This document shows positions 24,450 to 27,176 of a stretch of DNA of 64,000 bases, piece after piece. The DNA comes from a virus. The translations under genes were made by a program, and so were the position numbers. The notes under the pieces are model-generated. The model made no database searches. It had not been told where the DNA came from and was given only the letters and a program-made list of their open reading frames with translations. The stretch lies in the IMG/VR virus record IMGVR_UViG_3300037502_002391, positions 18,256-82,255 of that record; one strand, 5' to 3'. The stretch's first letter is position 1, and every line of letters starts with the position of its first letter.

Positions 24450-27176
24450 ATGGCTCACCTTGAACAACAAGATTTTTGCTTAAAAGTTAAGCAAAAATTC
24501 CCTAATTTTTTTAAAAATAAAAATGTATTAGATATTGGATCTCTTGATGTCAATGGTAATAATAAACAATTATTTGAAGATTGTAATTATTTAGGCATTG
24601 ATGTTGGAGAAGGTAAAAATGTTGATTTTGTTAGTATTGGTCACTTGTTTGATGGACCAGATAATTATTTTGACACAATCATATCCACAGAAGTTTTTGA
24701 ACATGATATGTTTTATGAAGATACTATAAAAAATATTATGAGGATGTTAAAACCTGGTGGTCTATTTTTATTTACTTGTGCTGCACCTGGGAGACCTGAA
24801 CATGGTACTAGAAGATGTGGTGAAGAATGTGCGCCACTATTAATTCAAATTAATGAAAATTGGGCTGACTATTATAAAAATTTAGAAGAAAATGATATTA
24901 GAAAAATTCCACAATTTAATGAAACATTTCCTGATTGTTATTTTCAATATAAAAATACAGATATTGAAATTCCTTGTGATTTATACTTTTATGGTATAAA
25001 AGGTGGTGAAAAATATTTGGTAGATAATATAAATGTTCACTATGATAAAAATCATTTTAGTGAACACGTATTTGTAATTGATTGTTGGCCAAATAATGAA
25101 GCCAAAGAAAATGATTTAATAAATTTAATAAAATTATTAAAAGTTTTTAATATTGAAATATTACTAACTGGTCATTATCCAATAAAACCAGAAATACAAA
25201 AAATGGTGGATTATTTTTTATATGATAAAAAAAATTCACTACTAAAATATAATGAGTTTATTGATTATTCTGTTGCAAGTGGAAGATTTTCTAATATGAA
25301 TAATTACATTCTTGAAAATCAAATGGAGTTTCACCATGATTTTGCAATATGGGAAACAATGCAAAATGCATTCAATTTTTGCAAAGTATTGGAAAAAAAA
25401 TATATACACTTTTTTGAATATGATAATCTACCAAACATTTATCAATATAGGCAATCTTTTTTAGAAAGAATACTAGATTTTGATGCAATAATATATGAAT
25501 ATGATACTATGTCATCAATTGATTCTCACTTAGCACCATATTGTGCTACTTTTATTTTTTCAATAAAAACAGACATTGCAATAAAAACAATAAATCAAAT
25601 AAAAACAAAATTTGATTATTTCACAAATAAGCCTTTAGGTTGGCAATTAGAAAAGGTTTTTTTAAGTTGTTTAAAAAATGTAACAAATAATATTTTAAAA
25701 TCTGAATATATTGCAAATAATAATGAGTTAAACACACAAGCAGTTTGGAATAGAGATGGTGTTGATAGAAATGGTGCAAAATTGCAAATATATTTAGGTG
25801 TTGAATTTAATGGTGATTTATATATTCATTTAATATCTGGATTCCATGAAGTAAAGGAAGAAAATAATTACTTGATTGAAGTAAATTATGATAATTACAA
25901 AAAATTTATACCTTTAAAAAAAGGAAAATTTTTATTAGAAAAGATAGGAAAATATAAAAAAGGTGGTAGAGTAAAATCATATTTAGATGGTGTTGAAATT
26001 TTCAATGAATATCTAAATGAAGACTTTTATGATTTTTATAAAAAAAATACACTAACATTTAAAAATGTTCAACAAAATCATCCTCCTAAAAATATAAATA
26101 TAAATTTCATAGATGGTGCATATGTTCAAATATTAGATGAGTATTTTTTTGATAGAAATTTTGAAATTAAATTTTTTGATAAAAAAACAAACAATGAAGT
26201 GTATGGAACAACAATAAAAAGTAATTGGTTTAGTAAACCAAGTTTTCAATATTTTGTTGATTGGAGAATTGAAATTAAATCAACTAACTACAACCTTGAT
26301 TACAATTTAGACTTAAAAGACAAAAAAGTCTTTATTGCTTTTGAATCTAAATCATTAGGTGATAATATTGCTTGGATTCCTTATGTTGATTTATTTCAAA
26401 AAAAACATAATTGTATAGTTGTTTGTTCAACTTTCTATAATTCATTATTTATAAATCAATATCCAAATATTGAGTTTGCTAATCCTGGACAAACAATAAA
26501 TGATATACATGCACTATATAGAATTGGTTTATTCTATGATGGTGAAACTTTTGATTCAAAAAAACACCCATCAAATCCAATTAAAGAACCATTAATGAAG
26601 ATTGCAAGTGATATTCTTGGTTTAGATTTTATTGAAGAGAAACCAAAATTACCTTTACTATCTAATAAAAAAGTAAAACGAGTTTGCATTGCACCTCACT
26701 CAACATCACAATGTAAGTATTGGAATAACCCTACTGGATGGCAAGAAGTTGTTGACTACTTGAACAATGTTGGTTATGAAGTTAGGCTTTTGTCAAAAGA
26801 AGAAGATGGATTTATGGGTAATAAAAACCCTATTGGAGTTGTAAAGCAACCACCTAGTGATACAATAGAAATATTAAAAACAATTCAAGAATCTGAATTA
26901 TTTATAGGATTAAGTAGTGGTTTAAGTTGGTTGGCTTGGGCATCTGGAACACCAACAATTTTAATTTCAGGTTTTACAGATGATTATTTAGAACCAAAAA
27001 ATGATTTAATTAGAATTATAAACAAAAATGTTTGTAATGGTTGTTGGCATACTCACAAATTTGATGCTGGTGATTGGAATTGGTGTCCAATGCATAAAGG
27101 AACAAGTAGAGAATTTGAATGTACAAAAGAAATAACATCAAAAATGGTAATTAATGAAATATTAAAAATTATATAA
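24450..27176 (+). CDS. fusion: SAM methyltransferase, unknown middle domain and TibC/Aah-family (BAHT) protein O-heptosyltransferase
   Basis: N-term VLDIGSLD, EVFEH, LKPGG; C-term SLGDNIAW, STSQCKYWNNPTGW, FIGLSSGLSWLAW, CNGCW..CP.HKGT..EFECTK. Confidence 0.85.
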   Translation: MAHLEQQDFCLKVKQKFPNFFKNKNVLDIGSLDVNGNNKQLFEDCNYLGIDVGEGKNVDFVSIGHLFDGPDNYFDTIISTEVFEHDMFYEDTIKNIMRMLKPGGLFLFTCAAPGRPEHGTRRCGEECAPLLIQINENWADYYKNLEENDIRKIPQFNETFPDCYFQYKNTDIEIPCDLYFYGIKGGEKYLVDNINVHYDKNHFSEHVFVIDCWPNNEAKENDLINLIKLLKVFNIEILLTGHYPIKPEIQKMVDYFLYDKKNSLLKYNEFIDYSVASGRFSNMNNYILENQMEFHHDFAIWETMQNAFNFCKVLEKKYIHFFEYDNLPNIYQYRQSFLERILDFDAIIYEYDTMSSIDSHLAPYCATFIFSIKTDIAIKTINQIKTKFDYFTNKPLGWQLEKVFLSCLKNVTNNILKSEYIANNNELNTQAVWNRDGVDRNGAKLQIYLGVEFNGDLYIHLISGFHEVKEENNYLIEVNYDNYKKFIPLKKGKFLLEKIGKYKKGGRVKSYLDGVEIFNEYLNEDFYDFYKKNTLTFKNVQQNHPPKNININFIDGAYVQILDEYFFDRNFEIKFFDKKTNNEVYGTTIKSNWFSKPSFQYFVDWRIEIKSTNYNLDYNLDLKDKKVFIAFESKSLGDNIAWIPYVDLFQKKHNCIVVCSTFYNSLFINQYPNIEFANPGQTINDIHALYRIGLFYDGETFDSKKHPSNPIKEPLMKIASDILGLDFIEEKPKLPLLSNKKVKRVCIAPHSTSQCKYWNNPTGWQEVVDYLNNVGYEVRLLSKEEDGFMGNKNPIGVVKQPPSDTIEILKTIQESELFIGLSSGLSWLAWASGTPTILISGFTDDYLEPKNDLIRIINKNVCNGCWHTHKFDAGDWNWCPMHKGTSREFECTKEITSKMVINEILKII

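Follow-up and report, generated by a model that had tools for sequence, protein, structure and literature searches.

To our knowledge, the bacterial autotransporter heptosyltransferases (BAHTs) TibC and Aah are known only as enzymes with which pathogens sugar-coat their own adhesins, and we know of no lipopolysaccharide (LPS) heptosyltransferase that has the β-barrel and iron finger of this family. Here we describe a gene of this family in a virus. It lies in a 64,000-nucleotide (nt) stretch of DNA—the window, to which all unqualified positions refer—comprising bases 18256–82255 of the 82,255-bp IMG/VR record IMGVR_UViG_3300037502_002391, and it encodes a 908-amino-acid (aa) protein with a BAHT domain at its C-terminus. 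With moderate confidence, we read the protein as a phage multi-enzyme whose BAHT domain would prime O-glycans on a phage protein, with its other domains extending and methylating them. The BAHT domain would place the first sugar on a Ser or Thr residue of a protein in the infected cell, probably a phage fibre protein; the remaining transferase domains would lengthen the glycan, and the methyltransferases would O-methylate it.

The functional residues of TibC used for comparison were taken from PMC4358343 and mapped on the phmmer alignment with TibC. According to that paper, Asp-110 is the catalytic base, Thr-226 and Lys-230 contact the β-phosphate, Trp-305 contacts the heptose O4, and Pro-300 accounts for D,D-heptose selectivity; Arg-286 contacts the adenine N1 and is named as the basis of ADP-sugar specificity. 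The same text places Phe-265 and Val-266 at the thumb tip, has Phe-368 touching the thumb tips and Cys-339, Cys-342, Cys-358 and Cys-370 as iron ligands, and underscores the iron finger in recognition of the protein substrate, TibA.

A BAHT domain in a three-domain phage protein

Judged from their sequence, the C-terminal 366 aa truly belong to the TibC/Aah (BAHT) family. The NCBIfam model TIGR04414 (hepto_Aah_TibC) matches aa 543–907 with 290.6 bits (E 1.7e-86; cut-off 200), covering model positions 6–374 of 374, and scores 293.4 bits on the genome. A phmmer search of the domain against the PDB returned TibC alone (4RAP, E 8.5e-63; 4RB4, E 7.2e-62), aligned over chain residues 20–382. The Pfam glycosyltransferase (GT) family GT9, PF01075, is recognizable over aa 740–846 (E 5.2e-7), and models of LPS heptosyltransferases fall far below their cut-offs, with 22.1 against 467 bits for RfaQ (NF007742) and 19.5 against 185.3 bits for heptosyltransferase I (TIGR02193). 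An initial annotation, made from the DNA alone, had assigned this part of the protein to the TibC/Aah family and not to the LPS GT9 enzymes, and had named a profile search against the strand-loop-strand O-heptosyltransferase family as the check; the near full-length TIGR04414 match above cut-off agrees with that assignment. The motifs that it quoted (SLGDNIAW, STSQCKYWNNPTGW, FIGLSSGLSWLAW and CNGC...CP...EC) all lie within 26090–27176, about aa 547–908, and the best match is to TibC, with all four Cys aligned, rather than to an LPS GT9 enzyme with the Cys geometry lost.

Residue counts were made over 37 viral and 78 genome loci, after exclusion of alignments spanning fewer than 300 query residues (5 of 42 viral and 2 of 80 genome loci). 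Asp occupies the column of TibC Asp-110 in all 37 viral loci and in 77 of the 78 genome loci. The predicted donor contacts Thr-752, Lys-756 and Trp-827, counterparts of TibC Thr-226, Lys-230 and Trp-305, are each preserved in 37/37 viral loci, as is every Cys of the putative iron finger. Phe-788 and Met-789 align with the thumb-tip residues Phe-265 and Val-266, and Phe-889 with Phe-368, which is kept in 37/37 viral loci. Ser-822 stands at the position of TibC Pro-300, like Ser-294 of Aah. The β-barrel region (TibC 1–97) aligns with TibC residues 20–97; the Pfam family TibC_1st is reported for relatives and not for the 908-aa protein itself. Positions of the domains and of these residues are collected in Table 1.

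The protein has three domains, not the two of the initial annotation, which lacked a conserved middle domain of about 360 aa. The fusion to a methyltransferase that it described is well founded: Methyltransf_23 (PF13489; E 3.5e-8, 33.8 bits, gathering score 27) and Methyltransf_11 (PF08241; E 3.1e-6, 28.2 bits, gathering score 21.2) both match within aa 3–110, and stand-alone phage methyltransferases match aa 1–184 at 38–45% identity by tblastn, that of Synechococcus phage S-CBS4 at 42.5%. That this fused methyltransferase acts on the sugar is plausible.

The middle domain has no Pfam match up to E 10 and no PDB match by phmmer or profile, and Atlas returned just viral hypothetical clusters and weak GT-A leads (0.85–0.88). 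It is common to 274 proteins (499–1589 aa band), mostly of the ~908-aa plan and some of ~710 aa that lack the methyltransferase. With E≤0.001, a profile built from eight phage middle domains, among which the motifs HHD and EYDN are invariant, matches 708 cluster representatives; 207 match at 1e-10 and 32 at 1e-30. They include stand-alone proteins of ~330 aa as well as segments within proteins as long as 1851 aa. Pfam was run on 64 of these matches (24 multidomain proteins and 40 of ~330 aa); it assigned no family to member 1 and listed none that covers the middle domain in any of the 64. The fusion partners found among them are GT9 (17), GT4 (15), Methyltransf_24 (10), rhamnosyl O-methyltransferase/CmcI (8), FkbM (5) and TibC_1st (3). 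Because sugar-handling enzyme domains adjoin the middle domain in these multidomain proteins, we infer that it may be another transferase; with its 708 cluster representatives and its sugar-domain fusions, it is a candidate for a new transferase family. Homology between this domain and the middle domain of the open reading frame (ORF) starting at 21065 was considered and rejected (hhalign probability 0.7%).

Table 1. Positions of the features discussed. Coordinates are those of the window unless preceded by a locus name; counts out of 74 refer to the best 74 of 217 viral loci with a propeller homologue. SAM, S-adenosylmethionine; 2OG, 2-oxoglutarate.
Feature	Position	Strand	Basis or occurrence
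Gene of the three-domain protein (methyltransferase, middle domain, BAHT domain)	24450-27176	+	ORF, 908 aa
N-terminal class I SAM-dependent methyltransferase domain, aa 1-184	24450-25001	+	Pfam, tblastn
Middle domain, aa 185-542: possible further transferase, family unassigned	25002-26075	+	Conservation, fusions
BAHT (TibC/Aah-family) domain, aa 543-908: predicted β-barrel, GT-B core, thumb, iron finger	26076-27173	+	TIGR04414 and 4RAP matches
Asp-638, aligned with TibC catalytic base Asp-110	26361-26363	+	Alignment
Ile-808, at TibC Arg-286 (adenine N1 contact), not conserved	26871-26873	+	Alignment
Putative iron-finger region, Cys-862/865/879/891 (TibC Cys-339/342/358/370) and Phe-889	27033-27122	+	Alignment
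Cassette partner 1, 906-aa fusion: GT4, unassigned middle, FkbM methyltransferase	21065-23785	+	Pfam
Cassette partner 2, 222-aa Methyltransf_24-like protein	23776-24444	+	PF13578, E 2.6e-4, 22.3 bits, under cut-off 26.3
468-aa protein with Thr-Pro tracts and an S+T-rich window, candidate acceptor	19316-20722	-	
Fibre A, Thr-Pro stalk (27% Thr, 10% Pro), Gly_rich_2 tip (PF21722), candidate acceptor	35226-38543	-	
Fibre B, long T-x-T-P-T-N stalk (25% Thr), Gly_rich_2 tip, candidate acceptor	39020-42628	-	
Propeller module (module B): GT9-like gene, three propeller paralogues, sulfotransferase, three 2OG-Fe(II) oxygenases, 258-aa ORF	27169-34429	-	Pfam, Atlas
ORF 33653-34429	33653-34429		Matched in 51/74 propeller loci
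2OG oxygenase 1			Matched in 34/74 propeller loci
2OG oxygenase 2			Matched in 34/74 propeller loci
Sulfotransferase			Matched in 32/74 propeller loci
2OG oxygenase 3			Matched in 12/74 propeller loci
GT9-like 293-aa gene			Matched in 12/74 propeller loci
TATTTATA box, examples	28090-28097, 31005-31012, 35193-35200, 38580-38587, 59059-59066		
Bacterial BAHT-adjacent tract proteins	L058 7163-8056; L049 7202-7567; L050 4826-5815; L057 4844-5806; L063-L066		

The cassette, its relatives and its usual partner

The gene closes the only plus-strand block in the listed region, a cassette of three genes whose first member (ORF 21065) matches Glycos_transf_1 (E 2.5e-13) and Methyltransf_21 (FkbM; E 4e-19). 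The set of related loci comprises 41 viral loci and that of Microcystis phage Mel-JY01, 42 in all. The GT4/FkbM fusion gene is matched in 35 of them, 29 at no less than 47% identity, and the small Methyltransf_24-like gene is present in 27. In Mel-JY01 the GT4 and BAHT domains are part of one 1226-aa protein, annotated merely as methyltransferase FkbM; elsewhere the BAHT domain, which matches 4730 proteins (206–657 aa band, E≤1e-5), is fused directly to methyltransferases of PF13489/PF08241, PF05050 or PF13578, and also to GT4. The closest relative with flanking sequence (locus L023, 64% identity) has a glycan island at its positions 8215–17925, after the cassette, with genes for a GT2, a UDP-galactopyranose mutase (E 1.7e-73), two Methyltransf_24 proteins, a GT47/RXYLT1-like protein, a Fringe/Galactosyl_T-like protein and a GT4. 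The cassette thus looks like a glycan assembly line. A bacterial homologue from Methylomicrobium (L048) has housekeeping neighbours and is uninformative.

A recurrent neighbour of the BAHT gene is a repeat protein. Of the 42 viral BAHT loci, 25 have a tract of at least 10 Gly-[STNA]-[STN] triplets within 10 kb, and so do 11 of 80 bacterial or metagenome-assembled loci; no such Gly-Ser/Thr-Ser tract is present in the 57 loci L067–L123, which hold genes of Burkholderia, Bradyrhizobium, Kosakonia and Selenomonadales type. Collagen-like tail-fibre genes lie near the cassette in 7 of 18 representative loci. The tract proteins have predominantly Thr or Ser at X and Ser at Y, with 0–0.4% Pro in six of eight proteins, the exceptions being those of L002 (180 aa, 5.6% Pro) and L003 (13.5% Pro). 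The two closest relatives with flanking sequence, L023 and L034, each have a Gly-Ser/Thr-Ser tract; in L034 it runs to 93 triplets, contains no Pro and has Ser at Y in all but two. The cultured relative Mel-JY01 has a Gly-Thr/Ser-Ser fibre next to its GT4-BAHT fusion. Small Gly-[ST]-[ST] proteins also directly adjoin the BAHT-like gene in bacterial loci of the same and neighbouring clades (Table 1). These tract-protein loci come from Methylococcales, Burkholderiaceae and other gammaproteobacteria, and the pairing resembles the enzyme-adhesin layout of TibC and TibA.

The record, rated 27% complete, is from an uncultured freshwater relative of phage T4. Its T4-type genes include a baseplate wedge gene (59121–60956), a ribonucleotide reductase gene (61856–63481), an SbcC-like gene (7611–9929), an SbcD-like gene and a primase gene; the baseplate, reductase and SbcCD genes of this virus record bear out the phage location given in the initial annotation. 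The G+C content of the window is 25–36%. Other data sets contain one identical 908-aa protein and one at 90% identity (P0121 and P0122). The right junction of the cassette is bridged by contigs of independent runs (X3 record 22, 24690–28064; X7 record 26, 22414–27591) and the left junction by X2 record 9 and the 15.6-kb contig X7 record 25, so the adjacency of cassette and propeller module is no assembly error. At least 63% of the sampled words of 20700–28100, that is, near-identical DNA, were found in 19 further runs from eight further studies. These runs are lake, river, freshwater, drinking-water and aquatic metagenomes dated 2019–2025, and no RNA run is among those listed. In contigs from three runs, a one-base indel at 23230 is compensated by another at 23236. 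A gene for a 366-aa Fib_succ_major protein (PF09603, E 1.3e-24) lies at 18211–19311, two genes upstream of the cassette; it stands within a row of four Ser/Thr-rich proteins (14945–20722) that probably serve host recognition.

Donor, acceptor and alternative readings

The results that weigh against the proposed phage-protein glycosylation concern its donor, its expression and its acceptor. As to the donor, the 908-aa protein has lost Arg-286, with Ile in its place. This column has Val in 16, Ala in 13, Ile in 4 and Arg in 4 of the 37 viral loci, and Arg in 60 of the 78 genome loci; among the viral loci Arg is retained only in L029, L030, L036 and L041. In a midpoint-rooted FastTree tree of tblastn segments, the clades of which are provisional, most of the non-Arg sequences, including that of the window, group together, and a separate viral group (L032, L033, L035 and L037) is also non-Arg. 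No CTP_transf_like or SIS_2 gene was found in the record, and rfaE_dom_II had no match in five cassette-bearing records, one of them rated 100% complete. Because Arg-286 is replaced and no heptose-activating genes were found, the donor may be a sugar other than ADP-heptose; the initial annotation had voiced doubt about this donor, and Ile-808 both justifies and sharpens that doubt. One of the five records, G003, has a gmhA match of 207.6 bits (cut-off 209.45). G003 is the 330-kb phage of the Arg-286-keeping locus L029, and its gmhA-like gene (L125 8268–8852; G003:C1:254288–254746) stands alone, with no pathway genes among nine neighbours. A 135-aa rfaE_dom_II-like ORF in the contigs G006 and G007 (G006:C1:79107–79475; 117.3 against a cut-off of 181.5) was set aside, as it is not tied to a cassette and these genomes have no BAHT match.

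As to expression, 10 of 53 ORFs have, in the coding direction, a TATTTATA box 18–47 nt upstream of their start codon. The GT9-like gene, propeller 3 and fibre A belong to these ten, whereas the three cassette genes all lack the box. At 20973, TATAAATA represents this box as read for a divergent 73-aa ORF (20732–20953); TATAAATA occurs 29 times against 19.3 ± 4.9 expected, a number reached in 4 of 100 shuffles.

These expression data are among the points in favour of a different target, a surface protein or envelope glycan of the host, modified for example to block superinfection or to change the receptor. We consider this improbable. The cassette is on the strand opposite to the surrounding virion genes and, besides lacking the box, is preceded by a sigma-70-like site (20964–20993: TTGACA, 18 nt, TATATT, 11/12 match); its GT9 relatives, among them the weakly matching WaaQ and WaaC, act on LPS, and the usual phage-fibre partner is missing here. 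However, sigma-70-like sites are not above chance in number (77 against 70.4 ± 8.9 in shuffles), the LPS GT9 models reach at most 22 bits, and Gly-Ser/Thr-Ser repeat proteins adjoin the gene in other phages and in bacteria. The domain is also predicted to keep the BAHT-specific β-barrel, thumb and iron finger, the last of which is tied to TibA recognition in PMC4358343.

As to the acceptor, glycosylation of a phage protein must be reconciled with the absence of the usual partner. Neither the window nor the 82-kb record has a G-X-Y run of six or more triplets or a Collagen match. The same is true (runs of at least six triplets; Collagen PF01391) of G005, a second IMG/VR contig of 42,721 bp, which opens with the same 127 nt with which the record closes, as would be expected for neighbours in one assembly graph. 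Outside a variable block, contig G006 (270,075 bp; completeness rating 90%) and the record are collinear, with protein identities mostly of 72–100% from the record start to window position 20722 and again over 61856–64000; it has just three Gly-rich runs, of 6–7 triplets, and several Thr-Pro-stalk fibres. In a further observation on G005, its 30.7–36.2 kb region has paralogues (74–85% DNA identity) of an array of leucine-rich-repeat genes at 3.7–6.7 kb of the record.

The Ser/Thr-rich repeat proteins of the window are four Thr-Pro-tract proteins only: the 468-aa protein, fibre A, fibre B and the product of 51805–52329. Since the usual Gly-Ser/Thr-Ser partner is missing here, we tentatively take the fibres with Thr-Pro stalks and Gly-rich tips to be the best remaining acceptor candidates. 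Thr-Pro-rich windows are found in none of the 42 other BAHT loci, and Thr-Pro fibres are present in G006 and G007 without a BAHT match, so that they are neither the usual nor an obligate partner. Moreover, known BAHTs modify Ser in β-helices, not Thr-Pro linkers. The 468-aa gene points away from the cassette, with the 73-aa ORF between, and its product has 72% identity to proteins of G006 and G007; in both of these contigs the cassette is missing from this position. An autotransporter domain (PF03797) has no match in the 82-kb record; the control was positive in 3 of 14 genomes.

The comparison with G006 and G007 also bears on the standing of the cassette. The 908-aa protein has no match in G006, G007 or G008. 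In G006 and G007 the next gene after the 468-aa one is a homologue of ORF 38614–39123 (50% identity in G007), and a fibre-B-like gene comes after that; both contigs break off within its Thr-Pro repeat, and the cassette is absent there as judged by synteny. By synteny, and in this one comparison, window 20723–38613 (~17.9 kb) is an extra block relative to G006 (265557–270075) and G007. Besides the cassette and the propeller module, this block contains fibre A, the 73-aa ORF and two small ORFs. On this single comparison, the cassette appears to be accessory and Thr-Pro fibres exist without it. The window is thus a counter-example, in which the cassette is present and its usual fibre partner absent.

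A broader proposal would make the phage-rich TibC branch without Arg-286 a set of distinct protein O-glycosyltransferases that use a donor other than ADP-heptose and act on repetitive Ser/Thr-rich fibres; in this phage their target would have shifted to the Thr-Pro stalks or Gly-rich tips of tail fibres, twelve 105-kDa chains assembled in a ring would prime, extend and methylate the glycan, and the middle domain would be a new glycosyltransferase fold family. Taken as a whole, we think this unlikely.

It is less probable still that the acceptor is a Gly-Ser/Thr-Ser collagen-like fibre encoded in a part of the genome outside the record. The low completeness rating of the record leaves room for such a gene, and both the frequency of tracts within 10 kb in related loci (25/42) and their presence in L023 and L034 would lead one to expect it. 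But the tract is missing from G005, the collinear G006 has only the three short Gly-rich runs, and the window, G005 and G006 together span nearly the whole of a genome of this type.

Quite unlikely, in our judgement, is the reading of the initial annotation itself, in which the BAHT domain would heptosylate SGG motifs of the propellers and of the SprB-repeat protein (43166–45325), and the fused methyltransferase would cap the heptose. The propellers do begin only 913 nt downstream of the 908-aa gene, on the opposite strand, and the cassette, propeller module and fibre A were gained or lost together in the one comparison with G006 and G007. The recurrence of SGG that it pointed out stands in part when counts are set against 200 composition shuffles per protein: propeller 1 has 5 SGG against 0.47 expected, a number reached in none of the 200 shuffles, and fibre B has 6 against 1.06 (0/200), whereas propeller 2 (2 SGG, 36/200), propeller 3 (1 SGG, 130/200) and the SprB-repeat protein (2 SGG, 25/200) show no enrichment.

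The distribution of the genes speaks against the proposed acceptors. Across the 42 BAHT loci, no match was found to any of the three propellers, to either fibre, to the SprB-repeat protein or to the oxygenases. Propeller homologues were also absent from five larger cassette-bearing records, of which one is rated 100% complete and one is the complete Mel-JY01 genome, in a search that recovered all three paralogues in their own genome as a positive control. The reciprocal test covered the best 74 of 217 viral loci with a propeller homologue; there the BAHT protein, the Methyltransf_24-like cassette gene and the SprB-repeat protein had no match, and ORF 21065 was matched in three, at its FkbM end only. 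What these loci do share is ORF 33653, the oxygenases, the sulfotransferase and the GT9-like gene (Table 1). In our reading, the acceptor of this phage enzyme lies outside the propeller family. As BAHT and propellers do not co-occur in either direction, the cassette (21065–27176, plus strand) and the propeller module (27169–34429, minus strand) are two separate modules, and if the propellers are modified, the enzymes of their own module are likelier to do it than the BAHT cassette. The GT9 lead for the 293-aa protein of that module comes from Atlas; the protein has no Pfam, NCBIfam or PDB match and no BLASTP similarity to the BAHT domain. The window therefore separates two modification modules seemingly linked by adjacency alone.

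Hypermodification of the phage DNA with sugars is hardly credible, for although phage GT-B enzymes put hexose, Kdo (3-deoxy-D-manno-octulosonic acid) or heptose on 5-hydroxymethylcytosine, as described in bioRxiv 10.1101/2023.12.21.572611, those enzymes resemble T4 β-glucosyltransferase, whereas the BAHT domain matches only TibC in the PDB and is predicted to retain its protein-substrate modules.

Comparison with described systems

Literature searches judged by titles and abstracts, with supplements excluded, found no published description of a phage BAHT and no paper on Mel-JY01; one paper on heptosyltransferases and cyanophages refers to waaC, waaF and waaQ. These LPS enzymes (WaaC, WaaF and WaaQ; GT9, PF01075) belong to the same GT-B/GT9 superfamily as the BAHT domain, which scores far under their family cut-offs.

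Among viruses, the closest likeness in design is to chlorovirus PBCV-1, whose A064R and A111/114R are described in PMC7826918 as three-domain enzymes that combine GT domains with a sugar O-methyltransferase. Like the 908-aa protein, they are virus-encoded multidomain proteins of glycosyltransferase and sugar O-methyltransferase. According to the same source, the PBCV-1 enzymes build the glycan of a virion protein without host enzymes, and their function has been demonstrated. They differ in belonging to a eukaryotic virus, in acting on N-linked glycans of the capsid protein and in having unrelated GT domains and no BAHT, and the function of the phage protein is inferred only.

In its proposed purpose, the cassette is like the virion glycosylation of mycobacteriophages, whose glycosyltransferases decorate the phages' own virion proteins (Freeman et al. 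2023, as cited in PMC12619734), with glycans at the C-termini of capsid and tail-tube subunits (as cited there); enzyme families and hosts differ. A conserved and widespread phage branch of the BAHT family would mean that large aquatic phages make their own methylated protein glycans, that the pairing of enzyme and repeat protein is far older and broader than the autotransporters, and that virion glycosylation reaches beyond the mycobacteriophages.

The nearest relatives remain TibC of enterotoxigenic Escherichia coli and Aah, the enzyme of AIDA-I. Unlike either, the protein described here is phage-encoded, carries a 542-aa N-terminal fusion (methyltransferase and middle domain) and has Ile in place of Arg-286; the record has no autotransporter, and the adjacent candidate acceptors are fibres rather than β-helical passengers. 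Like both, it is predicted by alignment to be homologous over the full length of β-barrel, GT-B core, thumb and iron finger. It keeps the catalytic Asp of TibC together with Thr-226, Lys-230, Trp-305, Phe-368 and the four Cys, and it shares with Aah a Ser at the position of Pro-300.

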